DNA from: Patescibacteria group bacterium
GTDB taxonomy: Bacteria; Patescibacteriota; Patescibacteriia; UM-FILTER-42-10
Direction: 5' to 3'
DNA length: 64,000 bases
NCBI GenBank assembly: GCA_041666485.1
Contig: JBAYGW010000005.1
Coordinates: 3,654 to 67,653, forward strand
A model generated the notes under the pieces. It ran no database searches. It was not told the DNA's origin and worked only from the letters and a program-made list of their open reading frames with translations. Positions within the stretch are counted from its first letter, which is position 1. Every line of letters starts with the position of its first letter. The translations under genes and the position numbers were made by a program. This document shows positions 3,492 to 62,365 of the stretch, piece by piece.

Positions 3492-4634
3492 CTATTCTCC
3501 CAATATTAATACATCAACATCTTTCTTTTCCTGAGTGATACGCACGAATTTAGTTGCAAATAAAATCATGAAAATTAAGGATGTAAACGAATTGATTAAG
3601 GTCAAAAATATAAATCCGAACAAATTTAACGCAAAGAATAAACTTAAAGCCAAAAGCGGTGTGATGAAATCCTCGTACGGTCCCAGGAACTGAAATGCGT
3701 ATTTGCGAATAATTTTTGCAATCACTTCCGAAAGTTTATCCGACCCCTTGGCGTCAATACCGACACTTTTGATAAATTCATCACGGGCATCGTTAATCTG
3801 CTCCTGAAAAATATTTTGTACGAAAGCAGATGATACCAGAGTTTGCGCGGATAGATCTTCGCTGTACAGACTATCCCGAATTTCGGGCGGCAGGGCATTA
3901 ATATCCACTTCCCCGCTCAGCACCTTGTTCCGCAAGTCATCAATCAGCGCCTGACCTTCTTTCACCTTCGGGCTGTTTATTGAATCTTCCAACTCTTGAT
4001 TCAGCTGACCACTGATACTTTCCACTACGCCGGCGCTCGTTTCAAAAATAAACTGGTCAAGCGTTTTGTCCGGATCATATCCTTTGATCTGAGTTGGGAT
4101 GATTTCATTGGCAATATTGGTGCTACTTATAATCAAAGAGTCAATTGCCTGACGCCCGCTATCTCTGTCCTGTTCCGAAGTAACGATATAGAATAGCATG
4201 GAAATAGAGAGCGCCATTGCCACCACCACTCCGCCGATTCCCCAGTGCATGATCTTGTACAAGGAAAACTTGATTCTTCCTTTCACCTCGTTATGCGTCC
4301 GGTGCGCATAGTACACGAAGATTAATATCTGTAAAAGAGAGATAATTAAAAGCCAGGGTGAGAAAGAGAAAAAGAGAAGCATCGGCAAACTGGAGAGCGC
4401 CCAGATTGGCAATTGGATTACTTCTTTCTTCACTACGATCGCGGTTGTGCTTACCAAAGCCAGATAAAAACAAAAAGCAATGACCGGGAAGATTAACCGG
4501 AGCAGCATCTGCCAGATGGATAGGTTTTGGCCGGACCATTCCAGATTGAAAACCGTAGACAAAGCATACCAAGCCAGCACGCTGGCTAAAACAGTCAGCA
4601 CCCCTAAAACAGCTATTTTGGTATTCTTGGTCAT
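3492..4634 (-). CDS. Hypothetical membrane protein (inserted between dnaK and dnaJ)
   Basis: 380-aa ORF with several N-terminal TM helices, a central acidic soluble region and C-terminal TM helices. No family recognised. Confidence 0.45.
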
Positions 4635-6045: not shown

Positions 6046-6125
6046 ATGTGGATGGTATTTTTAATTTTAATAAATATTCCATTAAACTGAAGGTGGGAAT
6101 GCGCATTCCCACCTTCAGCTACTGT

Positions 6126-9970: not shown

Positions 9971-11245
9971 TTACTTTTTCCTTTTCTTATTATCCAAGGA
10001 TTCCATGAAATGCTCTATGATATCAACTGCCCGGTTGCCGTTACGGTATGAACGGATTGCTTTTTTGAATTTTTGCGCGTTCTTACGGTATTTATTGTGT
10101 TTTAATATTTTTTCAATCGCAAACCGGATTTCCGACGGTTTAACATCCAGAGCGTCTTTCAGCAGGGAATTCGGATTGACCCAGGTTGGTTTGATCGGAT
10201 TCAGGTTAATACCGCATTTCAGGCGTTCAATTCTTTTGGCGTTATACCACTGTCCGTAGTTATGCGGAATTACAATGCATGGCTTACCGTATTTCAAAGC
10301 CTGCATAACCGTGCCATGCCCGCCGTGATGAATGACAATATCACTGATCTCACATGCTCTCTGGCCGGGTAAATAGGTTTCCACCCACACATTTTTCGGT
10401 AGTTTGCCGATTTTCCTTTTATTGAAATTCGGTCCGAGACTGACAATCAACTGGTAGTCAGAATCCGTGATTGCTTCAACCGTATTATTGAACATATCCT
10501 GATTATAGATTGTTCCGCCAAGGGAAAGATAAATGATCGGCTTGTTTTTATTCAAGTCCTTAAACCAAGCCGGCTCTTTTTTTTCAAAACCCTTCCAGAG
10601 CAACGGGCCGACAAAATAAGCATCACTCGGCAGCGGAGAAAGCGAATTATATTCCGGAACATCCGCAACCAGTTTGAGATCCGCGTCGTACTGGGCATAA
10701 ACCGAAGCTTTAGCATACTGGTCGGATACTTTATGAAAAGGAACCTTCATCGCCTGGCGCGAAATAAAATTTACAAAAATCCAGCCGATAAAATAGTAAA
10801 ACTGGTTTAAAAGTTTCTTTTCGGAAAGATCCAGACCGTTTCCCTTCCAGAATTCTTTGAGGTAAATTGAATTGGCGATCGTAATCCACGGCACTTTTTT
10901 TATTCGGGTGGAGATACAGGCGGTAGTCCGCTTGTCAGAAATTACAACATCCGGTTTATATTTATCAATAATTGATAAATCTTCCTGCACGTAATTGGAA
11001 AGCAAATCCAAATATTCATTTTTCTGGGCAAATTTATACTCCTCCGCCACGTCAAAACTGGTTGATGGCGCCAGTGTATAAGTTCCGTAACCGGCTTTAC
11101 GCACAAAATTCCGCTTATCCATACTGACGGCAAAGCGGATATGATATTTAGACTTCGGCAACAGATCAGCAATCGCCAAACAACGGGTGATATGCGCCAA
11201 CCCGTCGGAGTGCGGAAGAAACAGAATTTTTTTTCTTTTGATCAT
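9971..11245 (-). CDS. GT1-family (UGT/MGT-like) glycosyltransferase
   Basis: C-terminal nucleotide-sugar binding signature 'HHGGHGTVMQALKYGKPCIVIPH'. 424 aa. Confidence 0.7.
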   Translation of the reverse strand: MIKRKKILFLPHSDGLAHITRCLAIADLLPKSKYHIRFAVSMDKRNFVRKAGYGTYTLAPSTSFDVAEEYKFAQKNEYLDLLSNYVQEDLSIIDKYKPDVVISDKRTTACISTRIKKVPWITIANSIYLKEFWKGNGLDLSEKKLLNQFYYFIGWIFVNFISRQAMKVPFHKVSDQYAKASVYAQYDADLKLVADVPEYNSLSPLPSDAYFVGPLLWKGFEKKEPAWFKDLNKNKPIIYLSLGGTIYNQDMFNNTVEAITDSDYQLIVSLGPNFNKRKIGKLPKNVWVETYLPGQRACEISDIVIHHGGHGTVMQALKYGKPCIVIPHNYGQWYNAKRIERLKCGINLNPIKPTWVNPNSLLKDALDVKPSEIRFAIEKILKHNKYRKNAQKFKKAIRSYRNGNRAVDIIEHFMESLDNKKRKK

Positions 11246-22740: not shown

Positions 22741-24027
22741 ATGCCGAAATATTACAACCACATCCTGGGCTGCCAGATGAACAAGCTGGACGCGGAAAAG
22801 ATGGATGCCCTACTAGATGCGATGGGTTTCACATCAACCACTAAGGAATCAGAAGCGGATCTGATCAATGTTTTGGCGTGTTCAGTCAGACAGTCCGCTA
22901 TCAACCGGATCGACGGCAAATTGAAAGTTTGGAATAAACTGCGGAAAGAAAAACCGCTAACCACCCTTCTGACCGGATGTGTACTGCCTAAAGACAAAAA
23001 AGGAATCGGCAAGCAGTTTGACATTTTACTGGACATGTCGCAATTGCACACACTCCCCCAGCTTTTGAAAAAGCGCATGCAGGATATTGAGGACATTTTC
23101 CCTGACAGCGACTATTTCAAACTGCCGACCAAACACAAATCTCCTTTTCAGGCATTTGTAACAATCCAAAACGGGTGTAATAAATTTTGCCGGTATTGCG
23201 CCGTCCCCTACACCAGGGGCAGAGAAATTTCGAGACCCGCCGACCAGATTATTGCAGAGGTTAAAGACCTGGTTGAAAATGGATATAAAGAAATTACCCT
23301 GCTCGGCCAAACTGTAAATTCCTATATCAATCCGGAAAAAGGAACAGTTAAATCATTTGCTGATTTGCTTAAAGTATTGGGGCAAATCAAAGGCGATTTC
23401 TGGATTCGTTTTATTTCTCCATACCCGACTGATTTTTCTGATGAATTGATCGACGTTATAGTCAGTGATAAAAAAATATGCCCGCATCTGCACATACCGG
23501 TTCAAGCAGGCAGTAACGACATGCTGAAAAAAATGCTCCGGAAATACACGAGGGAAGAATATTTGGACCTGATCAAAAGGATCCGTAACAAAATGCCGGA
23601 TGTGGCAATAACTACGGATATCATCGTCGGGTTCTGCGATGAAACAGAAGAGAATTTTGCAGACACATTGGACTTGTACGAAAAAGTTAAATTTGATATG
23701 GCATACTTAGCGCAGTATTCCAAAAGACCCGGCACACAAGCGACAAAACTTTTTAAAGACAATATTCCGCAGAAAGTGAAAAAGCAACGGGAAGTGGCTT
23801 TGAATGAAGTGGTAAAGAAATATGCGCTTCTGAATAATCAGAAACTACTGAATAAAACAGTTACAGTCCTGCCGGAGAACATGAGAAAGGGTTTGTTGTT
23901 CGGGAAGACTGATAATAATAAACCAATCCAAATACAACGCGGAACCAAGGATCTGATTGGAAAATTTATTTCCGTCAAAGTCACCAAAGTTAATCCGTGG
24001 AGTTTGGAAGGCAGTTTAAAAAAATAA
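22741..24027 (+). CDS. miaB: tRNA methylthiotransferase MiaB (radical SAM)
   Basis: N-terminal 'GCQMN'. Radical-SAM 'CNKFCRYCAVP'. TRAM-like C-terminus. Confidence 0.85.
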   Translation: MPKYYNHILGCQMNKLDAEKMDALLDAMGFTSTTKESEADLINVLACSVRQSAINRIDGKLKVWNKLRKEKPLTTLLTGCVLPKDKKGIGKQFDILLDMSQLHTLPQLLKKRMQDIEDIFPDSDYFKLPTKHKSPFQAFVTIQNGCNKFCRYCAVPYTRGREISRPADQIIAEVKDLVENGYKEITLLGQTVNSYINPEKGTVKSFADLLKVLGQIKGDFWIRFISPYPTDFSDELIDVIVSDKKICPHLHIPVQAGSNDMLKKMLRKYTREEYLDLIKRIRNKMPDVAITTDIIVGFCDETEENFADTLDLYEKVKFDMAYLAQYSKRPGTQATKLFKDNIPQKVKKQREVALNEVVKKYALLNNQKLLNKTVTVLPENMRKGLLFGKTDNNKPIQIQRGTKDLIGKFISVKVTKVNPWSLEGSLKK

Positions 24028-24051
24028 GCCTTGTCCAAGCGGGAGCAAAGC

Positions 24052-24570
24052 TTAATGATTGAAAAGTGAGAACAGGCGGTATGCCGCGAGAGCTGTGGTC
24101 AGAACACCGACCATGTTCCCAGTGAAAATGAGCAGATACGCGCGCGGCAGTTTCAGAAGCCGCGCTGTGATGACGGATGCCGTGACCGCGTACGGCAGAA
24201 GCGGGATGGCGACCAGGATGAAGATCACGACGCTCGGGTACCGGCTGTTCACGATGTAGCTTGTGAGCATGTCGCGGAAACGTTGCAGACCGGCGTTGAT
24301 TGCGAAAAGCCGCAGCTCCATCTGGTGTGAACGGCCATTGGCGCCGTTCTGCCGGAGGACGCGTCTGGTGAGCGCAATCGTCTGCTCGCCCAGCCACAGC
24401 AGCATCTCGGGGAAGTAGAACATCAGCGACATCCCGATGCTCGAGCCGATGAGCAGTGTGAGGAACCCCTTCCAGAAGCCATACCCGGCCAGAAAGACAG
24501 CAAACGCCGTCACCTCTTCCTGCCAGATGGCCGACCAAACGAAGAATAGCTCGTCCAACAAGAAAACCAC
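24052..24570 (-). CDS. Hypothetical membrane protein encoded in a GC-rich island (possibly DedA/VTT-like)
   Basis: 172 aa, 4-5 TM segments. Codon usage and GC content differ sharply from the neighbours. The family call is weak. Confidence 0.35.
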   Translation of the reverse strand: MVFLLDELFFVWSAIWQEEVTAFAVFLAGYGFWKGFLTLLIGSSIGMSLMFYFPEMLLWLGEQTIALTRRVLRQNGANGRSHQMELRLFAINAGLQRFRDMLTSYIVNSRYPSVVIFILVAIPLLPYAVTASVITARLLKLPRAYLLIFTGNMVGVLTTALAAYRLFSLFNH

Positions 24571-24692
24571 GTGTTGACCTCCTGTCAGGGTGAATCCAAA
24601 GGCAGGAACGAAGTATCATAATTTAACATAAACTTATTTGTAGGTCAACGTTTAAAAACAGTAACCATTGCGAGGAGTCCCGTTAGTAATCT

Positions 24693-26561: not shown

Positions 26562-27632
26562 ATGAAAAATGGTAAGCATAAGAATAATGTAGTAGAGCTT
26601 TTTTCAGGTTGCGGTGGTTTTTCTTGTGGTTTTGAAAAAGCGGGATTTAATATTTTTTTAGGAGTCGATAATGATCAACCATCTTTAGATACATTTAAAA
26701 AAAATCATCAAAATTCAGTAGTCATGAATTTAGATTTATCACGAAATAATGCAATCGATAAAATTATTAAAGTTACTAATGGAACGAAGGTTGATATTAT
26801 AATTGCTGGTCCTCCATGCCAGGGTTTCTCTTTAACTGGAACCAGACTAAAAGATGATAAAAGGAATAAATTATTTAATACCGTTTTTGATTTAGCAGAA
26901 CATTTAAAACCAAAAGCAATCATAATAGAAAACGTTCCAGGCCTCGAAACACTTTATGGAGGTGTAGCAAAAAAAAGGATTTTAGAAAGATATGATGAGT
27001 TAGGTTATGAAGTAACTAGCCATGTACTTTTTGCACCAGATTTTGGTGTACCACAGATTAGAAAAAGAATTGTTTTTGTAGGAATATTAAAAAAAATTGG
27101 TAAAAAATTCATTTTTTCAAAACCATTGCTTAATAAAGACAATTATGTAAATTGTGAAGAGGCAATTGGTGACTTGCCAAAACGAGAAAAAGAGTTTGGG
27201 AATGAAGTTGATAAGTATATAAAGGCACCAAAAACTAAATACCAAAAAGAGATGAGGGGAAAAACAATAAAGTTATTTAATCACGTAAGCACAAAACATT
27301 CACCCCATGTTATTGATGTTATCTCCCAAGTACCGGAAGGTGGCAACTACAAAAACTTACCGAAAGGTGTTGGAGAAACAAGAAAATTCAACGAGGCATG
27401 GACACGTTATCATAGTAAAAAACCATCAAAAACAATAGATACGGGTCATAGAAATCATTTTCATTACAAATATAATCGTGTGCCTACTGTTAGAGAAAAC
27501 GCACGTTTACAGTCTTTTCCTGATCATTTTATATTCACTGGAAGCAAAACTCAACAATATAGGCAGGTTGGTAACGCTGTACCTCCACTATTAGCATATT
27601 CTATTGCAAAAGAATTATTGAAGTATATTTAA
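26562..27632 (+). CDS. DNA (cytosine-5)-methyltransferase, copy 1
   Basis: Motif I 'LFSGCGGFSCGF', motif IV 'GPPCQGFS', motif VI 'ENVPGL', motif X 'GNAVPP'. Very AT-rich gene. Confidence 0.9.
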   Translation: MKNGKHKNNVVELFSGCGGFSCGFEKAGFNIFLGVDNDQPSLDTFKKNHQNSVVMNLDLSRNNAIDKIIKVTNGTKVDIIIAGPPCQGFSLTGTRLKDDKRNKLFNTVFDLAEHLKPKAIIIENVPGLETLYGGVAKKRILERYDELGYEVTSHVLFAPDFGVPQIRKRIVFVGILKKIGKKFIFSKPLLNKDNYVNCEEAIGDLPKREKEFGNEVDKYIKAPKTKYQKEMRGKTIKLFNHVSTKHSPHVIDVISQVPEGGNYKNLPKGVGETRKFNEAWTRYHSKKPSKTIDTGHRNHFHYKYNRVPTVRENARLQSFPDHFIFTGSKTQQYRQVGNAVPPLLAYSIAKELLKYI

Positions 27633-27636
27633 CTCT

Positions 27637-28866
27637 ATGTCTAGAAAAAGAAAAGTTAATGTAATAGACTTATTTGCAGGTTGCGGTGGATTAACTGATG
27701 GTTTTGAGTATAAAAATAATTACAATATCTTAGCTACTGTTGAATGGGATAAACAATGCTGCAATACGTTGCAAAATAGATTATCTAAAAAATGGGGTTA
27801 TAAAAATGCGGCAGATTTGGTATTAAACTTTGATATTCAAAGAATAAAAGAATTACTAACTGGTTGGAAAAATGATGTAAAATACGGAAATAATGTCGGC
27901 CTTAAAAAACTAATAGGGAAAAATAAAGTTGATGTAATAGTAGGCGGACCACCATGTCAGGCATACTCTGTGGCCGGAAGAATTAGAGATAAAAATGGGA
28001 TGCACACAGACTATAGGAATTTTCTTTTTGAAAGTTACATTGCTTTAGTTAAAGAATTTAAACCTAAATTCTTTATTTTTGAAAACGTGCCTGGAATATT
28101 GAGTGCAAAACCTGGTGGAATCTCAATTATTGACAGAATAAGAGAATCATTTGGTAAAATAGGATACACCATTGCTGATGACTTAAGAAAAATAGCTATT
28201 GTTGACAGCTCTGATTTTGGTGTTCCTCAAATTAGAAAAAGAGTCATTATTTTAGGTGTAAACAAAAACGTTTATCGTAATAATGCCAACGAAATTATAA
28301 GGGATTTCTACTTCAATATTTTACCTTCCTTGAAATTTAAAAATAAGATGACTGTTAAAGATGCCTTGAATGACTTACCTAAATTCTTTCCATTGAATGA
28401 AAATAAACATAATAATCAATCCCACTCAATTTCCAAAAAATCAAATATATATAATCACATACCTAGATTTCATAGTAAAAGAGATATTGAAATATTTAAA
28501 ATACTTACTAATGATATTAAAAAAAGAGAAAATAAGTATACTTCTATTGCAGAGCTAAAAAAATTGTACTTCAAATTTACTGGAAAAAATTCTAATATCC
28601 ACAAATATCATGTTTTAAAAGAAGATGAACCAAGTAACACTATACCTGCTCACTTATATAAAGACGGTTTAAGACATATTCACCCTGACCCAAAACAAGC
28701 AAGAAGTATAACAGTAAGGGAGGCAGCTAGATTACAAAGCTTTGAAGATAATTTTGAATTTTTAGGAACCATGGGAGATCAATATAAAATGATTGGAAAT
28801 GCCGTCCCCCCAAAATTAGCATATGCTATTTCTGAAGCATTGTATAATTTAATTGAAAAATATTAA
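27637..28866 (+). CDS. DNA (cytosine-5)-methyltransferase, copy 2 (larger target-recognition region)
   Basis: Motif I 'LFAGCGGLTDGF', motif IV 'GGPPCQAYS', motif VI 'ENVPGIL', motif X 'GNAVPP'. Confidence 0.9.
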   Translation: MSRKRKVNVIDLFAGCGGLTDGFEYKNNYNILATVEWDKQCCNTLQNRLSKKWGYKNAADLVLNFDIQRIKELLTGWKNDVKYGNNVGLKKLIGKNKVDVIVGGPPCQAYSVAGRIRDKNGMHTDYRNFLFESYIALVKEFKPKFFIFENVPGILSAKPGGISIIDRIRESFGKIGYTIADDLRKIAIVDSSDFGVPQIRKRVIILGVNKNVYRNNANEIIRDFYFNILPSLKFKNKMTVKDALNDLPKFFPLNENKHNNQSHSISKKSNIYNHIPRFHSKRDIEIFKILTNDIKKRENKYTSIAELKKLYFKFTGKNSNIHKYHVLKEDEPSNTIPAHLYKDGLRHIHPDPKQARSITVREAARLQSFEDNFEFLGTMGDQYKMIGNAVPPKLAYAISEALYNLIEKY

Positions 28867-28883
28867 GCAATAATTTATATTTT

Positions 28884-29870
28884 ATGCCAAAATTTTACAT
28901 AAAAAAATTAACCCCCCAAGAACTTGGATATCGTTCAGGTAGACCAAAAGGTGGCGGTAGATATTTTTATGTTTCAAAGGATTGTTTAGAATTTTTCCCC
29001 CCTTTATCTGAAAACATACTCAATGATTCAGTTTTAATACCTATAATTCCTCCATTCTCGAATAATAAAGTATATAGTAATTTTGTTTATCATAATGATA
29101 AACATGCAATTGAAAACGGTACGAGGGATGAATATAGACTCTATCTTAATAAACAGATTGATCCTAATGGTGAATATTTTAGCATTGACGACATTGTTGT
29201 TTTTGAAAAACAAGAAGAAAAAATTGATCAAGAAATTATTCCAACATATTTTTTAAACAGATTTTTAGCGAGTGCACCAGAATACAATATCTTAAACAAT
29301 ATAATTGAAAAATCTGAAATCAGAGGTGGACATGCACTATATGATGGTGAGCTTTCTGTTTCAACACAAACAACTAAATTTTCTGCAGATAATCGAGTAA
29401 TAATTCCTGAAGAAGTTGAAAAAGAAGTAAAAGATAAACTTACTGAAAACGAAGAAGAAATGGGTGCACACTTATTTAATTCAATAAGTTTTAGGGATTT
29501 TGTCTTAAATAGTTATGGTTATAAATGTGCAATCACAAATAAATCAATCACATGGAAAAATCTTAATAATTTAGAGGCTGCACACATTAAACCGAAATCA
29601 CACAGAGGAAGTTTTCTGCCATGTAATGGAATAGCCTTGTCAAGAGATATGCACTGGGCATTTGATAAAGGATTTATCTCCATAAACGACGATTATACAG
29701 TTTTAGTACACAAGGACGTGAAAGAAACAATGCTTAAAGAAATAGACGGAAAGAAAATTAACTTACCAATAGAAGATTTCTTTAAACCAAACAAAGAGTA
29801 TCTTAAACATCACAGAGAAAATGTATTCGGTCTATTTCATCATTCAGGATCGTTAAGGTCAATTAATTAA
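28884..29870 (+). CDS. Putative restriction endonuclease, HNH (His-Me finger) family, cognate to the adjacent methyltransferases
   Basis: C-terminal 'YKCAITN...LEAAHIKPKSH...NGIALSRDMHWAFDKG' HNH signature. N-terminal region resembles a DNA-binding module. Operonic with the two MTases. Confidence 0.6.
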   Translation: MPKFYIKKLTPQELGYRSGRPKGGGRYFYVSKDCLEFFPPLSENILNDSVLIPIIPPFSNNKVYSNFVYHNDKHAIENGTRDEYRLYLNKQIDPNGEYFSIDDIVVFEKQEEKIDQEIIPTYFLNRFLASAPEYNILNNIIEKSEIRGGHALYDGELSVSTQTTKFSADNRVIIPEEVEKEVKDKLTENEEEMGAHLFNSISFRDFVLNSYGYKCAITNKSITWKNLNNLEAAHIKPKSHRGSFLPCNGIALSRDMHWAFDKGFISINDDYTVLVHKDVKETMLKEIDGKKINLPIEDFFKPNKEYLKHHRENVFGLFHHSGSLRSIN

Positions 29871-30122
29871 ATCAACAAATGTATTTTTAGATTAGGCCGA
29901 ACAGATGCGGATAAATACCCATTACAATACCACTCATGACAAAAATACAAAAAATTGTGGAATATTTCAAAATAAGCAATATGTTCAAATAACAGCAAGT
30001 TATCAGACATAATTTTTATATAATTTTGTTAATTTCCCACGTAACTTGTAGAATTCAGAAATAATGAATAAAGTTTCATTATCATTCAACCAAAACAATA
30101 TTCACAAATAACCATAGATACT

Positions 30123-31406
30123 ATGAAAACACGTTTTCAAACAATGTCTATAAATCGTCTCTTTAAGTATCGTGAAAGAATCGATTTAGAACCGTCTTTT
30201 CAGCGTGAGAAAGTTTGGTCCAGTGACAAGCAACAACACTTCCTAGACACACTTCTAAAAGGTTGGGGAGTGCCAAAATTATACCTTCAACTAGATGAAA
30301 GCCCATCGGGTAAAAGAAACTACATCTGTATTGATGGGAAGCAACGCCTTACATCAGTTTTTTCTTTTTTAGAAAATCGTATACCTCTTAGTAAAAAATA
30401 CTCAGGTGAATTTGGTGGCAAATATTATCTTGATTTACCAGATAAAATTCAGAATAAATTTGATGACTATAAACTTCATATCGAGGAAGTAACTGATCCG
30501 GAAGAAAAGGAAATGAGCGAGCTTTTTAAGCGGTTGCAGCTTGGCTCACCACTCAACTCGGGAGAGAAGCTAATGGCTATAGTTGGAGATATGCACAATC
30601 TTGTAAAGAAATATTCCGTCCATCCATTTTTTAAAAAGAAAGTGGCATTACCGAATACTAGATATGCTCATTTTACTGTATGTGCTCAGGTTTGTTGCTT
30701 AGAGACTGTTGGGATTACAGATATCCCACTTCGCAAATTAGAATTGTTTTTTTCGAGCCACGAGGATTTTCGTAGCAGTGGTTTTGAACTTAAAACAAAG
30801 ATACAAAAAATTAAAGAAGTGCTAGATTATCTCAACAAAATGTTCGCCGCAGAATCACCTGACCTTCGCAATAGAGCAAGTGTAGTATCTATTTATCTAC
30901 TTGTATCTGATTTGATAGATAAGGGAAATATTAAAGGGAAGGAAAATAAATTAAGACGGTTCTTTGCAACATTTACAAAAGAATTACGAAATGAAATTGA
31001 AAAAGGTGTTGGGGCAAAGGACGCACAATTTATAAACTATCAGTCAGCGATTATTCAGGGTGCTGATGATCAAAAGTCTATCAAACTTAGGAGAGAAATA
31101 TTATTGAATAAACTTTATAGTTACGATCCTTTTTTCTATCGAATTATGCATCCACAACTTTCTCCAATTGAAAAATTTAGTAATTTATATGGGAACGTGG
31201 AAGATCGTCTCGGAAACTCGCAGCGAGTAGATGATTGGCTGGTAAGTAAAAAACCGAGAATCAAAACCGTGACTTGTCGAGGTAAAAAAGAGACGTTTAT
31301 AACACATATTAGACATTGCATCCACCATAATAAACATGGTAAATACACAAAATTAGATCTTCGTAATGCAACAAACTTATTAAATCAAATAGGCACTCCA
31401 ACCTAA
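30123..31406 (+). CDS. DUF262 (ParB/Srx-like) domain protein with a His-rich C-terminus. GmrSD-like candidate type IV restriction enzyme.
   Basis: DUF262 blocks 'EPSFQREKVWS', 'LLKGWGVPKLYL', 'IDGKQRLTS'. C-terminal 'HIRHCIHHNKHG...NATNLL' may be a degenerate His-Me finger. Confidence 0.6.
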   Translation: MKTRFQTMSINRLFKYRERIDLEPSFQREKVWSSDKQQHFLDTLLKGWGVPKLYLQLDESPSGKRNYICIDGKQRLTSVFSFLENRIPLSKKYSGEFGGKYYLDLPDKIQNKFDDYKLHIEEVTDPEEKEMSELFKRLQLGSPLNSGEKLMAIVGDMHNLVKKYSVHPFFKKKVALPNTRYAHFTVCAQVCCLETVGITDIPLRKLELFFSSHEDFRSSGFELKTKIQKIKEVLDYLNKMFAAESPDLRNRASVVSIYLLVSDLIDKGNIKGKENKLRRFFATFTKELRNEIEKGVGAKDAQFINYQSAIIQGADDQKSIKLRREILLNKLYSYDPFFYRIMHPQLSPIEKFSNLYGNVEDRLGNSQRVDDWLVSKKPRIKTVTCRGKKETFITHIRHCIHHNKHGKYTKLDLRNATNLLNQIGTPT

Positions 31407-54398: not shown

Positions 54399-54803
54399 TT
54401 ATTCTTGATGTTGCTCATGTTGCGTAACCGGATTTTCTCTGCCCAGTAAAAAGAATTCCAGCAGTCCTAAACCCATAATCAGCAAGACCGCGTTCCACCA
54501 GGTAAACAGATTGTTAGCTTGGAGCATTAAAGAAATCACAATTAGGGAAGAAAATAAGACCGACTGGCGCAATGAAACCCCGATGTGACGGAATAGTACC
54601 GATCTTTTCACAAAAATAGCACGTACAAAAAAGCCAAATAAGGCAAATGTTCCCATTAGCGACAAAAAAAGCATGATATAGAAAGAAAAAAGCCCGACAA
54701 AACCTGAGTTAAAAGGGTCAATATTCAGAATAACCAATACAAAAGCCCCCCACGAAATGAGGGTCCCAAATCCCATAATTAACAGGTATCTTCTTAACGG
54801 CAT
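54399..54803 (-). CDS. Hypothetical small membrane protein
   Basis: 134 aa, 4 TM segments. Confidence 0.4.
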   Translation of the reverse strand: MPLRRYLLIMGFGTLISWGAFVLVILNIDPFNSGFVGLFSFYIMLFLSLMGTFALFGFFVRAIFVKRSVLFRHIGVSLRQSVLFSSLIVISLMLQANNLFTWWNAVLLIMGLGLLEFFLLGRENPVTQHEQHQE

Positions 54804-55007
54804 ATAACACTAAAGAATCTTATCTCATCGTAGTTTTTTGAAGAGATTTCCACCTAGATTGTAACAGATTTTCGTGATTTCAGCAAACGATTTTTTGGGG
54901 CAAAAAAGGTCATTTTTCCAAAGAAAAAAGGCTCCGAACATTCATGGGAGTGAATGGGAACCTTTCGGGAAACGAGGGGTCGAGCATAGCTCGACAAAGG
55001 TGCGATG

Positions 55008-55442
55008 CTACGCGATACGCTGGACTTCGAATCCGACGTATTCGCGCTTGATGAACTTGCCTCTGAAGGTCGTGGTCGTATGGTACTTCTCCTGATAGAC
55101 CAGGATCACCAGCTCGCCCGGCTGCCTTTGGGTGATGTGGTCTGCGGGTACGCAGACCAAGCCCACCGGCGTGTCGATGACCATGACCACCTGGTCGCAC
55201 GTGGCAACCGTTGTTACGAACTTGCGTCCGTTAGTGGCCGCCGTGGCAACTCCCAGGTTCTGAGTGAATAGGCCGTGGAACACGACCTGCCCCGAGATCG
55301 CCTGTGATGCGGAGTGCTCCACGACGATCTTGTTGTCGAAGATCCCCGCGACCAGGAGGATCAGGGCGATGGCCAACAGGACAATTAGAAGGCCCTTCTG
55401 GAACCGATAGCGAAGCTCCGCCTCATGAGAATCGTATGCCAT
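55008..55442 (-). CDS. Hypothetical N-terminally membrane-anchored protein in GC-rich island 2
   Basis: 144 aa. TM 'LLIVLLAIALILLVAGIF'. GC-rich codon usage unlike the neighbours. Confidence 0.4.
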   Translation of the reverse strand: MAYDSHEAELRYRFQKGLLIVLLAIALILLVAGIFDNKIVVEHSASQAISGQVVFHGLFTQNLGVATAATNGRKFVTTVATCDQVVMVIDTPVGLVCVPADHITQRQPGELVILVYQEKYHTTTTFRGKFIKREYVGFEVQRIA

Positions 55443-55503
55443 GACTCACACTCTCCTAATTCGTCGACCGTGTTGCTATCCGAGCTGATTCCCAGATAGC
55501 GTG

Positions 55504-55983
55504 TTAGTTGCCGACGGGGAGCGCAGCGAGCAGGGCCCGGGGTTCGTTTTCCGGGCGGAGGTGCCGGGGGTGGATTTTCAGAACACGGGTCCTGCTTCCT
55601 TCGCTGACCACGGTGGTGACCACAGCCGTTGCCGGCCGAGTTGAGTCGGCGGGGCAAATCTCCACCAACTGTTTGGCCACCACGAGTATGGCCCTGCCGT
55701 TGTAGCTCGACAGGTTGTCGGAGCTGATAGAGACCATGTACGCGGTATTCGCGTACTTGTTCTTGAGGAGATTGACCGTCAGGAAGGATTCCAGCCGGTA
55801 CTCCCCCTCGGTGAGCTGGGACAGCCCGATCACCGGGATGCTGTACGCACGCAGATTCTTGATCTGCTGGCGGTAGACGAGACTGCTCCCGATCCCGAGG
55901 AAGATGGCGAAGAAGGCGAGGACAACCCAGAAACGGGTGGCGGTGTACCAGTGGTACCGCTTGGCGAGCTGCAAGTTAGGCAT
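55504..55983 (-). CDS. Hypothetical N-terminally membrane-anchored protein in GC-rich island 2 (possible paralog of 55008-55442)
   Basis: 159 aa. Same topology. Shared 'CPAD/VPAD' region. Confidence 0.4.
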   Translation of the reverse strand: MPNLQLAKRYHWYTATRFWVVLAFFAIFLGIGSSLVYRQQIKNLRAYSIPVIGLSQLTEGEYRLESFLTVNLLKNKYANTAYMVSISSDNLSSYNGRAILVVAKQLVEICPADSTRPATAVVTTVVSEGSRTRVLKIHPRHLRPENEPRALLAALPVGN

Positions 55984-56102
55984 GATCTACACCTTTCACT
56001 TCCGTGTGTGGAAACACCCTCACGCGCAAAGGCGTTTCAGAGAAGAACCTGATCCACGCGTGACCGAGTATACTAGCACATCTCAACCGGATTGTCAAGC
56101 CA

Positions 56103-56186
56103 CGTCAGAAGGTACGATTGCGCAATCGCACCTTCTGACGGTGTTAAGACTCAATCAAAACAGGCGCGACATCAATGTCGCGCCTG
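56103..56186. repeat. Two long GC-rich palindromes: a 40-bp near-perfect one (CGTCAGAAGGTACGATTGCG/CGCAATCGcACCTTCTGACG) and an 11-bp-stem hairpin (CAGGCGCGACAT-caa-ATGTCGCGCCTG)
   Basis: Seen directly. They lie between the GC island and the 3' end of the pilus operon. The second hairpin is likely a terminator for the minus-strand pilus operon. Confidence 0.6.
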
Positions 56187-56207
56187 CACACTAAAATAAA
56201 TATTAAA

Positions 56208-57248
56208 CTATTCCTCTATCCAGCCGTCTTGACTGATGTTGTAGGAAAGAATTATATTGGCAATTTGGTTATAAATACCCTCCAGGTCGGAAGCGGATGG
56301 TGCGTAGAAATACATGTTAGGATCTGTGGCAATATCGTTACGTAAAAAGTCTTCATTCACGCTACTCCCTAACCCGATCGCAAAAATCAAAATCCCGACG
56401 TTGTCCGCTTCATCCGCCTTTGTTCTGGCATAAAGTTCCGCGGCGCTGATTGGTGACGGCACATTTGCTACACCATCGGTTAACAGAATTTCAACTTTGA
56501 TATCCCCGGACGGCACATTTGTCTGTATATTAGTTGTAGCCAATCCAATTGCATCGCCAATATTGGTATTGCCGGTCGGCGTCGGTATTATATTTACCGC
56601 TGCCTGCGCGGCGGCAAAATCATTTGAGGAAGAAAAATTTAGTTGCGCTGATTGATTATAAGAAACAACTCCGATCTTATCATAAAGTGGATCCATTTCA
56701 TCAATAAACGATTTCGCCGCTTCTTTGGCAAAAATCATCGGTCGTGGACCCCACAACCCGCCATTATTTATACATTCTATGGAGTTGAGATACGCGGGAT
56801 TCGTGCAACCATCACCATCATCATCCATGCTACCAGAACGGTCTATTATGTGATAAATGGTAGTGTCGTTTCTTGTGGCAGAAGCACCCGCATCGGCATA
56901 ATAACTGGCAACAGTACGAACGCTATTGGCAAACGTTCCGGTTCCAACTAATTTGCCGGAAGCGACACCGGCATTATGCTGTGCCACAACTTCACACTCT
57001 ACCCCGTCAATATTGATTGTTGTTCCAGTATAGTTTTCGTCTGTGCGTAATTGCAGATATCCTTCTTCAATGCAGGTTTGAGCTGAGTAAAATGCTTTTT
57101 CCGTGGAAATAGAATTTCTGGCGATAATTTTTTCTCTAGTGGCCGTAACATTGTTGGAAAAGACAAATAAAAACATAACAATCATCGTAAAGAAAACCAT
57201 TAAAATGGTGATACTGCCTTCCTGATTTCTTTTTCTAAAATTATTCAT
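56208..57248 (-). CDS. Pilus-associated protein with N-terminal prepilin-like TM segment and C-terminal von Willebrand factor A (MIDAS) domain
   Basis: 'IIDRSGSMDDDG' DxSxS MIDAS motif. N-terminal hydrophobic helix. Last gene of the pilus operon. Confidence 0.6.
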   Translation of the reverse strand: MNNFRKRNQEGSITILMVFFTMIVMFLFVFSNNVTATREKIIARNSISTEKAFYSAQTCIEEGYLQLRTDENYTGTTINIDGVECEVVAQHNAGVASGKLVGTGTFANSVRTVASYYADAGASATRNDTTIYHIIDRSGSMDDDGDGCTNPAYLNSIECINNGGLWGPRPMIFAKEAAKSFIDEMDPLYDKIGVVSYNQSAQLNFSSSNDFAAAQAAVNIIPTPTGNTNIGDAIGLATTNIQTNVPSGDIKVEILLTDGVANVPSPISAAELYARTKADEADNVGILIFAIGLGSSVNEDFLRNDIATDPNMYFYAPSASDLEGIYNQIANIILSYNISQDGWIEE

Positions 57249-57249
57249 G

Positions 57250-57762
57250 TTACTGTTGTCTGAATGATATCGTAGAATTTATATCAGACTCTCCTGTTCC
57301 TTTTTCAACAATCAAATTAATCCTAAGAGATGAAGAGACTTTCTTAAACGAAACTAGCGAAACATTTACATCTTCATCAGTTAAAAGCTTCATACTAGAC
57401 GGAGCGGGAATCAAATTCATATCCTGTCCATAATACATTTTCCCGCCATTTAATTCATATACTGTAATAATGTTGTCGGGGGCAACAGGGTTAGTATAAA
57501 AATGAGAATAGACTATCGCTTTTGTTCCGCTTGCCTGGATGTCCACATCATAGGCATTACGCAAGGAATAAGTCATTTTTTCAATAATTTGTCTGGCATT
57601 GTACTGCGCTGTCTGCTGATTGTTGGTCAGTACTCGCTGTTCGGTACTGTTTACCAGAAACATAGTCAGCATCAGGGTAACGATACTGGAAATACCCAAA
57701 TACACCATCAACTCCATCAGGGTCGTACCTCGCTGATTAAATTTGATCAGTCTTAATTTCAT
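57250..57762 (-). CDS. Minor (pseudo)pilin, class III signal peptide
   Basis: 'RGTTLMELMVYLGI' prepilin cleavage/methylation motif. Confidence 0.6.
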   Translation of the reverse strand: MKLRLIKFNQRGTTLMELMVYLGISSIVTLMLTMFLVNSTEQRVLTNNQQTAQYNARQIIEKMTYSLRNAYDVDIQASGTKAIVYSHFYTNPVAPDNIITVYELNGGKMYYGQDMNLIPAPSSMKLLTDEDVNVSLVSFKKVSSSLRINLIVEKGTGESDINSTISFRQQ

Positions 57763-58247
57763 TGTCCTAACCAGTTAGTAATATAGCTGGCAAATGAGAT
57801 ATCTCTCATATTATCTCTCTCCTGCCATTCCACTTTTACGTCAAGCCGCCTTGCTTGATTATCTTCCGTCCCCGATGCACTCAAATTACCGGCCGCGTCT
57901 CTATAAGCTTTGCTAATATGTATCGTCCGATAATACTTGCCGTTAAGTTCCTGTGCCGGGTTTGCCGGATCACTTGGCAATATTTCAAATGTATTACCGT
58001 TTTCTTGAATCTGATAAAAACCTTCGGATAAAACGCTAATCAAATTCCAGTCTGACTGTTTTATAGCAAAAAGCTGTTCCATTGATTCTTTAGCATAAGC
58101 TGTCGCTTCCACTTCTTGTTTTGAAGCAATCACTAACTGGTGATTGACTCCGATCAGATTACCGATCGCCAAAGAAAAAACCGCTGCCAGACTGATACTT
58201 AGCAGTACTTCAATCAACAGACTTCCTTTTTGATTATGCCAGTTCAT
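57759..58247 (-). CDS. Minor (pseudo)pilin
   Basis: 'KGSLLIEVLLSISL' prepilin motif. Confidence 0.6.
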   Translation of the reverse strand: MNWHNQKGSLLIEVLLSISLAAVFSLAIGNLIGVNHQLVIASKQEVEATAYAKESMEQLFAIKQSDWNLISVLSEGFYQIQENGNTFEILPSDPANPAQELNGKYYRTIHISKAYRDAAGNLSASGTEDNQARRLDVKVEWQERDNMRDISFASYITNWLGQ

Positions 58248-58684
58248 AAAGATAATATTTTAACTGTTCCCGGTTTCCTGATTTCAATACGGGAACTATT
58301 TACCCCCGCATAAAGGATAAATAAATCCAAATCCTGATCCGGGATGCCTGTTAGCTTATTAAAAACTATGTCGTCACTTGCCGAACACGTGAATTCTTGC
58401 GGAAAGTTGTATGTTTCTGATACTAATTCCGGATTCACTGATAATAAATCTATTGCATTGCCGCTGCAACGCACCGCCCATGCACGACCTGATTCCGCTG
58501 ACTGCGCTCTGCTTTGTGCTTCACGAACTATCTGCGCGACCTTATCTGCTTCAGTTACAGCTTGTGCACCTGTTTTACCTTTTGATAAAGAAATCACCGC
58601 CACACCGGCAATCAGACTGACTGCGGTTATGACGATCAGTACCTCAATTACAGTGAAGCCAAATTGTTTTTTCAGGTTTTTCAT
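58244..58684 (-). CDS. Type IV (pseudo)pilin / major pilin candidate
   Basis: 'KKQFGFTVIEVLIVITAV' canonical G-F-T-x-x-E motif. Confidence 0.7.
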   Translation of the reverse strand: MKNLKKQFGFTVIEVLIVITAVSLIAGVAVISLSKGKTGAQAVTEADKVAQIVREAQSRAQSAESGRAWAVRCSGNAIDLLSVNPELVSETYNFPQEFTCSASDDIVFNKLTGIPDQDLDLFILYAGVNSSRIEIRKPGTVKILSL

Positions 58685-59889
58685 AATATATTTGCAAAAT
58701 TCCAGAGGGGATACATCACTGCTAGGGCTAATCCGCCGACCAACACACCGGTGATCAATAACATTACCGGTTCAATTAATGTTGACAGATTGTCGCTCCA
58801 GTTCTGAATGTCGTCATCATAATATTTTGCCGAATGATGAAGCATATCATCCAAATAGCCGGTCTTTTCTCCGGTTGATATCATTTTCTGGAACAGCGGT
58901 AAAAACAGATCTGGGTCGCCTTTGAAAATATCGGAAAGCGAAACCCCACGTCTTACAAAAACTTCACCCGCTCGGATAGCGTCACGATAAACAACATTAC
59001 TCGCGGCGTTGCTGGCTAATGTCAAACTTTGATCAATTGAGACACCGGACTTGGTTAGCATGTGTAGCGATCTGGAAATCATTGCTAAATTTAATTTTCT
59101 GATAACCATTCCGATCATCGGCAGACGAAGTGTTAAACGATGGATTGATTTTTTGAATTTCTCCGAATATCTAATACTCAAACGAAATGAAATAATACAT
59201 AACGCAATTCCAACTGCCAGTAACAAACCATAGTTGACGATAAAATTGCTGATTGCAATTAAGATACGGGTAAATACGGGCAATTGTGCGGAAACATCAT
59301 CGTAGATGGCCGCGATTCTTGGAATCACCACCACCATCATCACGGCAACAATTGCAATCATCGTTACAAAAATAAGTGCCGGGTAGATTAATGAATTTCT
59401 GATCTTTCTTAATAATTTATAATCGCTCTCTTGCTGGGTTGTCAGAAATTCCAGCACATCAACCAGTTTTCCTCCGTGTTCGCCGATTCTGATCATGGCA
59501 ATTGCCACCGGAGAAAAAACATTTTTGTACTTTTCCAAAGCAGATGAAAGTGTTTTTCCTGAATTCACTGCTTTTTCCAAATCCGAAATAATTATCTTCA
59601 TATTTGGATTGGAGTTCTGTTCTCTGGAAGAAGCTAATGCTTCAGGAAGATTTAATCCGGCTCTCATCATTGTCATCAGACTGCGCAAAAAAAGGATGCG
59701 GTCAATTCTGGAAATATACCGGAACATGCTCTGCCAAAATGCATTTCCACTTTTTATTTTCACCAAGGTAACAACTGAATTTCCTTCACTGGAAAGCTGC
59801 TTTGACACTCTCTTCTTTGTCCAACCCCGAGCTAATCCACGGTGAATGGTATTTTCTAGATCAATAAATGTGTATTCAAAATTTTTCAT
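58681..59889 (-). CDS. pilC: Type IV pilus / type II secretion platform protein (PilC/GspF family)
   Basis: Two GspF repeats and 3 TM. 402 aa. Confidence 0.85.
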   Translation of the reverse strand: MKNFEYTFIDLENTIHRGLARGWTKKRVSKQLSSEGNSVVTLVKIKSGNAFWQSMFRYISRIDRILFLRSLMTMMRAGLNLPEALASSREQNSNPNMKIIISDLEKAVNSGKTLSSALEKYKNVFSPVAIAMIRIGEHGGKLVDVLEFLTTQQESDYKLLRKIRNSLIYPALIFVTMIAIVAVMMVVVIPRIAAIYDDVSAQLPVFTRILIAISNFIVNYGLLLAVGIALCIISFRLSIRYSEKFKKSIHRLTLRLPMIGMVIRKLNLAMISRSLHMLTKSGVSIDQSLTLASNAASNVVYRDAIRAGEVFVRRGVSLSDIFKGDPDLFLPLFQKMISTGEKTGYLDDMLHHSAKYYDDDIQNWSDNLSTLIEPVMLLITGVLVGGLALAVMYPLWNFANIL

Positions 59890-59897
59890 ATTTTTGA

Positions 59898-61565
59898 TTA
59901 TTTAGTAACCCGTATTACCTCTTCTAGGGTAGTTTGTTTATTTAGTACTTTAATTATTCCATCTTCATACATCGTTTTCATATTCTTTGCCCTTGCTGTA
60001 TCTTCTATTGAAGATGAATGTGCCCGGTTGATTATCAAATCATGAATATCTTCATCAACTTTCAGAACTTCAAAAATTCCGGTTCTTCCAGAATATCCGG
60101 TATTCAGACACGCGGGACATCCTTTGCCTTTTGCAACGGTTGGTTGTTCTTTATTGGAATACTTTGCTACCAGCCCTTTCGGAATTGAATCAACAACATA
60201 TTCAGTTTTGCAGGAATCACAAATATTTCGGACTAAACGCTGACCAATAATCGCCTTTAAAGTAGACGCGATCAAATATGGCTCCACACCCATATCAAGT
60301 AACCTCGGGATTGCGGCGGCGGCGCTGTTAGTGTGTAGAGAAGTTAATACTAGGTGGCCGGTCATTGCCGCATTAATTGCGATCGTTGCCGTTTCTTTGT
60401 CCCGGATTTCTCCGATCATAATAATATCCGGATCCTGACGCAATATTGAACGCAGGCCATTAGCAAAATTTAAATCCACATGCGGATTTACCTGTATCTG
60501 ATTCGCACCGGTCAAATGATATTCAATCGGATCTTCAATTGTGGAAATATTTACTTGCTGGTTATTTATTTCTTTCACAAGAGAGTATAAAGTTGTCGTC
60601 TTACCTGAACCGGTCGGTCCGGTAATTAAAATCATCCCGTTGGAAAACCCCAGTATCTTTTTTAAATCTTCGCGGTTGCTTTTTTCCAAACCCAGTGTAT
60701 CCAGCGAAAGGTTTTCATTATCCGTATCCAGAAATCTTAACGAGGCTTTTTGGCCGTGCAATGTCGGGATAATTGATAAACGCACCGCGACTTTATACCC
60801 GGATTCATTGAAACTGAACCGTCCGTCCTGCGGGCGCATGTGCTCGTCAATGCGAAGTTGAGATAATATTTTAGTACGTGCAATTATCGGAGCGAGTAGT
60901 TCTTTCGGCAAAGTGAAAAATTCATGAAGCATCCCATCCATCCGAAAACGAACTGAAACCGAATTCTCGCGCGGTTCAATATGCATATCACTTGCCTCGC
61001 TTTTAATGCCAAAAATTATTAACTGGTTCAGCAGTGAAATAATCGGGGCTTCCTGCCCCATTGTTTCCGGAGTATTATTGACTCTACAAGCTCTGATAAT
61101 CAGTTCATCAATTGCTTTTTTGCTGGATTCTGCGGAATTATTAAATGCTTCTTCCAAATATTGTTTAATATCTCTCTGATTAGCCAGATACACCGCCACA
61201 TCTTTATTCAGTGACCTTTTAACATATGCAATTAATTCCGTATTCTCCGGTCTGGCCATTGCCACGTAGACATATGCTTCATCCTCCTGAAAAGGCAAAA
61301 CCAAATGTTCCAAACAAATGGAAGATGGGAGTTTTTTAACCACTTCCTGGTATATTTTAACCTGATTCAAATCAACCACCTGCAGTGAATGGGAATCCTG
61401 GAGCAGTGAAATCAACTTGGATGACGGGACAATTCCTTGCTCAATACAAAAATCCAAAACATTACCCATTTGGAGTTTTTCATACTCTTTGAGCTTATTG
61501 GATGTTTCTTTGGATAATATACCCTCTTTTCTTAGGGCATCGGTTACTTGTTTTGTCGCTATCAT
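59898..61565 (-). CDS. pilB: Type IV pilus assembly ATPase (PilB/GspE family)
   Basis: Walker A 'GPTGSGKTTTLYS'. Asp/His boxes. Tetracysteine 'CDSC...CPAC'. Confidence 0.9.
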   Translation of the reverse strand: MIATKQVTDALRKEGILSKETSNKLKEYEKLQMGNVLDFCIEQGIVPSSKLISLLQDSHSLQVVDLNQVKIYQEVVKKLPSSICLEHLVLPFQEDEAYVYVAMARPENTELIAYVKRSLNKDVAVYLANQRDIKQYLEEAFNNSAESSKKAIDELIIRACRVNNTPETMGQEAPIISLLNQLIIFGIKSEASDMHIEPRENSVSVRFRMDGMLHEFFTLPKELLAPIIARTKILSQLRIDEHMRPQDGRFSFNESGYKVAVRLSIIPTLHGQKASLRFLDTDNENLSLDTLGLEKSNREDLKKILGFSNGMILITGPTGSGKTTTLYSLVKEINNQQVNISTIEDPIEYHLTGANQIQVNPHVDLNFANGLRSILRQDPDIIMIGEIRDKETATIAINAAMTGHLVLTSLHTNSAAAAIPRLLDMGVEPYLIASTLKAIIGQRLVRNICDSCKTEYVVDSIPKGLVAKYSNKEQPTVAKGKGCPACLNTGYSGRTGIFEVLKVDEDIHDLIINRAHSSSIEDTARAKNMKTMYEDGIIKVLNKQTTLEEVIRVTK

Positions 61566-61792: not shown

Positions 61793-62257
61793 TTACAGGT
61801 TGACGACAAGCGTTTCCGCCTGAATAAAGTGGATCGGACCGAAGTCCCGGCGCATGCGCGCCAGCTCCTTTTCGGACCAGTCCGGTGCCACCGCCTTGCC
61901 GCAGTCCACCGTGTCGGCCAGATGTTCCTCAGTAAGCAACTCAAACGCTTCGGGAGTGACCTGGCAGAGTTTGCCGGTCACAACCATCTCAAATTCATCG
62001 CGGACGTTCTCCGCGATGACGGCATTCAGCGTCCTGAAATCGATTGCGTTTCCGGCGAAGAAGAATTTCGTCCCGTCCTGGCAGCAGATATATACGCCGC
62101 CTTCGGGAACTGATGCATTCTGCCGAATTGACATGAAGACGTTCCCCATGTCATCACAACGCTCCACCCAGAGGCGGAGATTCTCAACGCGATCGACGGA
62201 GGCACTTGCCTGCTTACTCATGTACCATTCCCCTTCAAGGCTTCGGTTCACATCCAT
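61793..62257 (-). CDS. Hypothetical protein, GC-elevated
   Basis: 154-aa ORF followed by a strong terminator. GC visibly higher than flanks. No secure family. Confidence 0.4.
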   Translation of the reverse strand: MDVNRSLEGEWYMSKQASASVDRVENLRLWVERCDDMGNVFMSIRQNASVPEGGVYICCQDGTKFFFAGNAIDFRTLNAVIAENVRDEFEMVVTGKLCQVTPEAFELLTEEHLADTVDCGKAVAPDWSEKELARMRRDFGPIHFIQAETLVVNL

Positions 62258-62365
62258 GTGGCGAACTGACGTCCACCTGCGGTAGAAATGCCAATACTAC
62301 CAGAATATAATTTTATGTCAACCCCGCTAGAAATTAGATTTATAACGGGGTGAAGGCGGATATAC

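Follow-up and report, generated by a model that had tools for sequence, protein, structure and literature searches.

In a 64,000-nucleotide stretch from a Patescibacteria group bacterium (the window: positions 3,654 to 67,653 of contig JBAYGW010000005.1, assembly GCA_041666485.1, read on the forward strand), a GC-rich islet of 1.1 kb lies between a type IV pilus operon and the genes pheS and pheT and carries two open reading frames (ORFs), ORF A and ORF B. The reading that we consider probable is that of a two-gene unit of foreign composition, made up of an old, clade-wide import (ORF B) and a later orphan insertion (ORF A). The unit would be bounded on one side by the pilus-operon terminator and on the other by the promoter of the next operon (a small membrane protein gene, pheS and pheT), and an extended -10 promoter (56098-56070) would drive an 86-nt leader, ORF B, ORF A and a hairpin with a T-run (54965-54920). 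ORF B would have been imported from a much GC-richer source before the sampled members of a Kerfeldbacteria-like clade diverged, probably together with ORF3, a GC-rich gene that lies beyond the pilus operon; ORF B would since have been retained under purifying selection, its silent sites drifting slowly towards the composition of the host, and ORF A would have been inserted later between the ORF B stop codon and the terminator. The islet would then be a fairly ordinary relic of gene transfer, a feature of a known kind, and its value would be that of a clean, datable case of foreign genes kept in a streamlined Patescibacteria genome, with no bearing on the identity of the organism's host. One part of it, the promoter-leader motif common to ORF B and ORF3, might lead to something new.

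Composition, coding status and boundaries of the islet

The islet (54996-56100) has a GC content of 0.582, compared with 0.420 in the remaining window. In 300-bp windows the value is 0.58-0.61 from about 54950 to 56150 and about 0.36-0.44 in the flanks, which bears out the jump to roughly 55-60% GC noted by an earlier reading made from the sequence alone (the sequence-only reading), and the islet is the highest peak across the 64 kb at both 500 bp and 1 kb (z about 3.5-3.8). GC at the three codon positions is 0.60/0.35/0.79 in ORF A and 0.56/0.43/0.84 in ORF B, a strong three-base periodicity, and the third-position values (GC3) compare with 0.40-0.47 in the neighbouring genes. Composition is thus atypical in overall GC and in GC3 alike, as expected of a horizontally acquired islet; C and G are both enriched at the third positions of the GC-rich genes, a pattern also seen among the native genes of a genome with 60% GC. 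ORF A and ORF B, for which the sequence-only reading had given exact coordinates (Table 1), are real protein-coding genes, because they show this periodicity, have Shine-Dalgarno sequences and keep their ORF length in relatives.

Pfam families of the flanking genes agree with the placement that had been proposed, between pheST and a pilus operon. The pilus operon contains T2SSE, T2SSF, three pilin-like genes and a von Willebrand factor A (VWA) protein, which adjoins the islet and is 58% identical to its counterpart in a Candidatus Kerfeldbacteria metagenome-assembled genome (MAG); on the other flank the order is small membrane protein gene, pheS, pheT. This small membrane protein gene (54399-54803, minus strand) is called at 125-126 aa in relatives, and yet the upstream ATGCCGTTAAGAAGATACCTG... 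is conserved in all genomes, so that the longer, 134-aa start used in the window is probably correct.

Long palindromes had been taken to mark the edges of the islet. They exist (exact positions 54979-54995, 56103-56140 and 56161-56186), and their role as boundary marks of an integration site was rejected, since each has another place in the locus. The last belongs to the intrinsic terminator of the pilus operon, which a terminator scan recovered; relatives conserve it, L001 and L011 by way of an alternative stem that is fully compensated. The long hairpin at 56103-56140 is variable: hairpins of unrelated sequence stand at the same place in L001 and L005 (each at about 7850-7880) and none was found in L003 and L011, so that in the window, L001 and L005 a long perfect hairpin lies 2-4 nt upstream of the -35 box of ORF B with its structure kept and its sequence not; it is possibly an insulator or a second terminator. 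In L003 a counterpart of the small hairpin follows the ORF B stop codon directly, which identifies the hairpin as part of the ancestral 3' region. The terminator-like hairpin at 54920-54965 is absent from the output of the simple terminator scan because its loop exceeds 8 nt; L003 carries GGAACC in its stem with the pairing kept, and it is likely to be the end of the ORF B/ORF A transcript.

Table 1. Coordinates of the islet, its boundaries and related features (positions in the window).
Feature	Position	Strand	Description
Next-operon promoter	54858-54886	minus	TTGCTG-N17-TACAAT; conserved; drives small membrane protein gene, pheS, pheT; host-side boundary
Terminator-like hairpin	54920-54965	minus	AAAGGTTCC...GGAGCC then TTTTTTCTTT; conserved in all relatives
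Small hairpin	54979-54995	minus	GTCGAGC-TAT-GCTCGAC; counterpart directly after ORF B stop in L003
ORF A	55008-55442	minus	144-aa orphan, N-terminal membrane anchor, GC3 0.79
Intercistronic spacer	55443-55503	minus	61 nt; carries ORF A Shine-Dalgarno AGGAGA (55452-55457); part of the insertion
ORF B	55504-55983	minus	159 aa, N-terminal membrane anchor, beta-rich C-terminal domain, GC3 0.84
ORF B 5' leader	55984-56069	minus	86 nt; motif CCACACACGGAAGTGA (55996-56011), GGA in short hairpin loop; Shine-Dalgarno AAAGGTG
Islet promoter	56070-56098	minus	TTGACA-N17-TAGTAT; upstream TG (extended -10); scan 10/12 matches plus TG
Long hairpin	56103-56140		Arms ~17-19 nt; abuts -35 box of islet promoter
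Pilus-operon intrinsic terminator	56153-56186	minus	Hairpin CAGGCGCGACAT-TG-ATGTCGCGCCTG then TTTTGATT; after VWA gene stop at 56208
ORF3	61793-62221	minus	142-aa cytoplasmic ORFan, GC3 0.70; far side of pilus operon
ORF3 conserved leader	62222-62293	minus	Contains CCACATGGATGTGA (62248-62261)
ORF3 promoter	62294-62321	minus	TTGACA-N16-TAGTAT; related to ORF B module
Probable 'island 1'	24052-24570	minus	172-aa multi-pass membrane protein, GC3 0.78; own promoter, without leader motif

Relatives, age and origin of the two genes

ORF B belongs to a very small family. A word-indexed search returned four relatives, and 1.84 billion representative proteins, scanned exhaustively with HMMER, gave five hits, among which the new real ones were P0007 and P0009, bringing the family to about seven proteins: six in the Kerfeldbacteria-like clade and one distant homologue. 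The latter, P0009, is the sole homologue beyond the clade (hhalign probability 95.6% over 123 columns, 24% identity). Its genome (L015) has 60% GC throughout and a GC3 of 0.66-0.79 in all genes, such that the composition of P0009 is native there, and the SufB protein of this genome is closest to that of a Kerfeldbacteria MAG (75%), with Ardenticatena (Chloroflexota) and other Patescibacteria nearly tied. A further hit, P0008, matches ORF B only in a 23-residue hairpin within a SpaA-fold repeat (hhalign probability 29%). Scans of metagenomes and genomes for additional members recovered the known loci only, plus two relatives without ORF B.

Within the clade, ORF B orthologues are syntenic in L001/L002, L003, L005, L011 and L012, directly upstream of the small membrane protein gene and pheST, with a GC3 of 0.71-0.83 against a host GC3 of 0.30-0.50. 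A recent arrival does not fit a gene that is both syntenic and GC-rich in six species-level lineages. These loci were drawn from independent JGI, ENA, NCBI and Logan assemblies, and the recurrence of the same junctions excludes mis-assembly for ORF B, a possibility named at the outset as one that would overturn the islet. The distribution of both genes is patchy: ORF A is missing from five relatives, and ORF B was not present after the VWA gene in L009 or in Candidatus Kerfeldbacteria L010. In L010 the slot after the VWA gene holds a 1047-aa CARDB protein. In L009 (3055-8484) it is filled by a GIY-YIG-like ORF and restriction-modification-like genes of very low GC (0.26-0.33); this difference in content makes the slot a variable site.

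The ratio of nonsynonymous to synonymous substitution rates (dN/dS) is 0.4-0.66 in ORF B, 0.09-0.31 in ORF3 and 0.02-0.11 in neighbouring genes. Values below 1 mark ORF B and ORF3 as selected genes, and ORF B is fast-evolving except in a conserved C-terminal block, VVAKQLVEICPADS...VTTVVSEG..TR. A role as a type IV pilus accessory gene was considered and rejected because ORF B and the pilus operon do not stay linked: in L012 no such operon stands upstream of ORF B, and in L009 and L010 the operon occurs and ORF B does not. What remains constant beside ORF B is the small membrane protein gene, with pheST after it.

Both proteins are N-terminally anchored, as had been proposed, with hydrophobic helices at residues 4-41 and 3-46 in AlphaFold2 models; the models of ORF A and ORF B have confidence (pLDDT) values of 51 and 59, respectively, and are confident for the transmembrane helix alone. 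Basic residues precede the helix in both products. By the positive-inside rule, such anchors place the N terminus inside and the C-terminal domain outside, a topology that would fit ORF A and ORF B. The C-terminal domain of ORF B is predicted to be all-beta with about six strands, in a low-confidence model, and Foldseek searches of PDB with these low-confidence models (best E 0.17) assigned no fold. With low confidence, we suggest that ORF A and ORF B are accessory proteins of the envelope or surface with that topology, and that the fast evolution of ORF B would be that of its outer domain.

The direction of change at silent sites fits slow amelioration of old imports. Third-position changes were polarised by parsimony, with L012 serving as outgroup only, and the small membrane protein gene, pheS and pheT were pooled as controls. 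GC-to-AT changes outnumber AT-to-GC changes by 12:2 in ORF B and 19:4 in ORF3, compared with 50:101 in the controls (Fisher p<=0.0002). In the closest pair, the window and L001, the counts are 8:1 for ORF B and 14:7 for ORF3 versus 7:10, 35:60 and 84:93 for the controls. The equilibrium GC3 implied by the per-site rates, about 0.34-0.5, is that of the host. Within the limits of small counts and of parsimony bias, the silent sites of the GC-rich genes are thus drifting towards host composition.

Several observations weigh against an old import followed by simple decay. Relative to L012, the silent sites of ORF B and of the flanking genes are saturated, yet GC3 still stands at 0.76-0.84, so that a single import before the split with neutral decay afterwards would call for an ancestral GC3 close to 1.0. 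Few substitutions were counted, and polarisation by parsimony is biased in compositionally skewed sequence. Synonymous-codon identity between the window and L001 is 0.84 in ORF B and 0.77 in ORF3, against 0.58-0.64 in the flanks, a difference for which silent-site selection or subsequent exchange among clade members could account. Furthermore, no donor was found: outside the clade there is the one distant homologue of ORF B (24% identity) and none of ORF A. The islet also bears no signature of mobility, as there were no integrase, transposase or other mobility genes among the ORFs of the window, no tRNA in a search of the window, and no att-like or meaningful flanking direct repeats around the islet; an origin from a mobile element was rejected, with no relatives among viral contigs or plasmids. 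The functional proposal, finally, has no family, fold or defence-system match behind it: Pfam, NCBIfam, PHROGs and PADLOC yielded nothing above threshold for ORF A, ORF B, ORF3, island 1 or the neighbouring island genes, and PDB sequence searches with the products of the GC-rich genes gave no match. The gap in GC3 could be closed by any of three things: later spread of the genes among clade members, a donor of very high GC, or weak silent-site selection.

An explanation that we regard as unlikely, without dismissing it, is that the high GC3 is actively maintained, whatever the origin of the genes, through selection on silent sites (messenger RNA stability or structure, or control of expression by rare codons) or through biased gene conversion. 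The persistence of a GC3 of 0.76-0.84 in six lineages despite saturation against L012 points that way, as does the third-position divergence between the window and L001 (0.22 in ORF B and ORF3 compared with 0.35-0.39 in the flanks), and so does the mosaic nature of the locus. Nucleotide identity between the window and L001 along the pilus operon ranges from 0.66 to 0.93. In the pilus region (56208-61565) the VWA gene pairs the window with L001 and L003 with L005; the 170-aa pilin-like gene pairs the window with L005 and L001 with L003. Because adjacent pilus genes group the genomes in such conflicting ways, the locus is a recombination mosaic. Maintenance is opposed, on the other hand, by the strong GC-to-AT bias with an implied equilibrium at the host level, the opposite of stationarity at high GC, by ribosomal and chaperone genes in the window that lack the bias, and by the nucleotide identity profile, in which the GC-rich genes are not outliers relative to pilB. 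The window contig (k141_146642) and an L001-type relative, L002 (k141_1386931), both come from metagenome assembly ERZ27249449, and therefore two related species with the same GC-rich genes co-occur.

ORF A has a different history. In an alignment of six genomes from the ORF B stop codon to the next gene, ORF A and the spacer stand out as a single clean block, about 500 bp long (about 55001-55503) and missing from all five relatives. The block sits between the ORF B stop codon and the conserved terminator-like hairpin, and the sequence on both sides aligns base for base with conserved sequence. No homologue of ORF A was found in a collection of about 15 billion proteins, in related loci, or among viral contigs and plasmids, and the gene was seen in one assembly only (ERZ27249449). 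These boundaries indicate that ORF A is a later, lineage-specific addition within the ORF B transcription unit: as the block lies upstream of the conserved hairpin with its T-run, ORF A would belong to that unit, and as it was inserted between the ORF B stop codon and the terminator, it would be transcribed with ORF B from the ORF B promoter. A comparable case was observed in L005 (1616-2425), where a lineage-specific insertion of about 585 bp after ORF3 holds a 124-aa ORFan (GC3 0.55) with its own promoter; bracketed by two copies of the ORF3 terminator, it parallels the position of ORF A after ORF B. Taken together, ORF A and the L005 gene support repeated small additions at these slots. The repeated acquisition suggested by the sequence-only reading is reasonable in this light, given several GC3-rich genes in the window and ORF A as a separate, later insertion.

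The same reading had presented the two proteins as paralogues. That ORF A is a tandem duplicate of ORF B which has diverged past recognition would agree with their common architecture (an N-terminal anchor and a domain of about 110 aa) and composition, their adjacency on one predicted transcript and the tetrapeptide C/V-P-A-D found in both. Pairwise BLASTP, however, gave no alignment at E<=100, and hhalign of the ORF B family profile against ORF A aligned the tripeptide PAD alone (3 columns, probability 0.4%). Moreover, five relatives have no ORF A, among them L001, whose ORF B shows 83% identity; a duplicate younger than this split ought still to be recognised as such. The quality of the ORF A model does not permit a comparison of folds, and we consider duplication improbable.

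We attach far less probability still to an artefact, in the form of an assembly chimera or contamination, or of a GC-rich structured RNA misread as ORFs. ORF A is known from a single assembly, and GC-rich islands in low-GC genomes are often structured RNAs. Yet assemblies of independent origin show the island of ORF B with the same junctions, and the flanks of ORF A match conserved sequence to the base on either side. The islet as a structured RNA was ruled out by codon periodicity, by conserved and intact ORFs and by the lack of any Rfam match at gathering or E-value thresholds, to which the Shine-Dalgarno sequences and dN/dS below 1 may be added. The sharpest GC peaks of streamlined genomes can therefore be protein-coding ORFans and not structured RNAs or assembly errors.

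A recent host-to-symbiont transfer from an actinobacterial (high-GC Gram-positive) host, which the sequence-only reading had raised as speculation, can claim the high GC3 and the 23-residue likeness between the C-terminal hairpin of ORF B and the SpaA-fold repeat of an LPXTG-type surface protein, and is highly improbable given that ORF B is old and syntenic in six lineages, that the HMMER scan of 1.84 billion representatives held no actinobacterial relatives, that the SpaA likeness stops at 29% probability over 23 columns, that the only high-GC genome with a homologue is Kerfeldbacteria-like or Chloroflexota-like by SufB, and that in a published survey most transfers into Patescibacteria came from other Patescibacteria, with 109 events as against 1 from Actinomycetota (PMC12455944). 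What is supported of the proposed high-GC donor is the nature of the source, in line with the foreign composition, the absence of ORF B from L009 and L010, the homologue in a 60%-GC genome and the GC-to-AT drift; the proposed identity of the donor is not supported. An old import of ORF B with a later insertion of ORF A is accordingly the reading that we retain as probable.

A promoter and leader common to ORF B and ORF3

ORF B and ORF3 carry related promoter-leader modules (Table 1). The TTGACA and TG-TA..T elements of the islet promoter are conserved in 6/6 genomes, and the ORF B leader hardly varies among five genomes and is conserved in part in L012, its conservation exceeding that of the coding sequence. 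The true start of ORF3 is probably the ATG at 62221. In L012 the ORF B orthologue has that of ORF3 as its immediate upstream neighbour; in the window's clade, the pilus operon, of normal GC, lies between the two GC-rich genes. Their being neighbours in L012, together with the related modules, argues for a joint import of ORF B and ORF3.

The leaders of ORF B and ORF3 have in common the core GC[GA][CG]GTG[AG]...TT[TC]...CCACA-N-GGA[AT]GTGA, followed by the Shine-Dalgarno sequence. The strict motif is present exactly twice per genome, ahead of ORF B and ORF3, and nowhere else in the window, and the palindrome CACGCGTG has one occurrence in the window. A covariance model recovered the 11 leader copies only in 166 kb, at 46-64 bits, the next best score being 11.6 bits. 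An Rfam search of the leader gave no match; the consensus fold has zero covarying pairs, and folding z-scores of -0.5 to -2.2 are unremarkable.

A sequence resembling CsrA-type sites is present in both leaders, as CCACAUGGAUGUGA in that of ORF3 and CCACACACGGAAGUGA in that of ORF B, and is conserved in 11/11 leaders. A tblastn search of 258 kb of sequence from the window and its relatives with approximate CsrA probes found no csrA. Tentatively, and with more doubt than conviction, the promoter and leader of ORF B and ORF3 (about 60 nt, with a GGA hairpin by the Shine-Dalgarno sequence, not in Rfam) may represent a new cis-regulatory element. The leader might then be a candidate site for a CsrA-like or other RNA-binding protein, by analogy, or a small RNA switch built on alternative pairings of its GUG...CACA...UGUG segments. 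Judged from the motif, translation of ORF B may be controlled jointly with that of ORF3 through the GGA-hairpin leader by some protein or RNA, a proposal in which we have low confidence. If such an element were real, genes of foreign derivation that flank a pilus operon would share a common control in a clade of the candidate phyla radiation (CPR), and their persistent GC-rich codon usage could be tied to control by the leader and would not be a fading relic. The leader motif is in any case a small, testable lead into gene regulation in the CPR, a field in which almost nothing is known.

Locus variation and comparison with known systems

Other compositional anomalies were observed in the window and its relatives. 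The second-highest GC peak of the window is the gene that probably corresponds to the 'island 1' of the sequence-only reading (Table 1), whose product has a weak, sub-threshold similarity to VTT/DedA; it is convergent with a miaB-like gene on its 3' side, divergent from miaA, and overlapped by a longer spurious ORF (23990-24619). The opposite anomaly occurs at 26562-31406 on the plus strand, where four genes have a GC of 0.29-0.35 and a GC3 of about 0.2. The first two begin with FxGxG-type motifs of the kind typical of DNA cytosine methyltransferases, and this low-GC island is probably of the restriction-modification type. In L005 a gene with bAvd/23S_rRNA_IVP Pfam hits (10173-10532) lies between pheS and pheT and is not found in the window; bAvd is an accessory protein of diversity-generating retroelements. 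L012, which has no pilus operon at this locus, has a larger GC-rich block, of about 3 kb (5484-7795). Upstream of the ORF3 and ORF B orthologues it contains two ORFans, of 52 aa and of 226 aa (the second with a membrane anchor), and, on the opposite strand, a HIT-like gene of 146 aa; all of these genes have a TTGACA/TG-extended promoter.

Three known systems invite comparison. The leaders resemble sites of CsrA/RsmA, for which the consensus RUACARGGAUGU was obtained by SELEX, the systematic evolution of ligands through exponential enrichment (PMC7652899). The sequence C-ACA-U-GGA-UGU-G of the ORF3 leader holds the ACA, GGA and GU elements, and a 4-bp hairpin that closely precedes the Shine-Dalgarno sequence has the GGA in its loop; the ORF B leader reads CAC-GGAA-GUG, and more GGA motifs lie upstream (GUGGAU, GUGGAC). 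The comparison is one of sequence resemblance only, and the motif could equally be an inverted repeat in DNA (CACAT-GG-ATGTG) or part of an RNA switch.

ORF B also recalls the SpaA/Cna-B prealbumin fold (PF17802). A 23-residue segment, VVTTVVSEGSRTRVLKIHPRHLR, resembles the hairpin VVASWVSEAGKTHTLKLKPGHYI of a SpaA repeat, and the domain is predicted to be all-beta; unlike such proteins, ORF B has no Pfam hit at E<=1 and no LPXTG motif. Classification as a SpaA/Cna-B surface protein was rejected, as the match covers these 23 columns at the 29% probability given above and not the whole fold.

The closest parallel is the compositionally atypical islet described by Lawrence and Ochman, in which acquired ORFans ameliorate towards the composition of their host. 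The sharp contrast in GC and GC3, the patchy distribution, the tiny family, the silent changes towards host composition and the position between operons, by terminators, all agree with that picture. The islet departs from it in having no integrase, tRNA, flanking direct repeats or identified donor. It differs also in that the contrast is still seen in six species-level lineages and has lasted beyond what simple neutral decay would predict, and in that its genes carry a conserved promoter and leader of their own.

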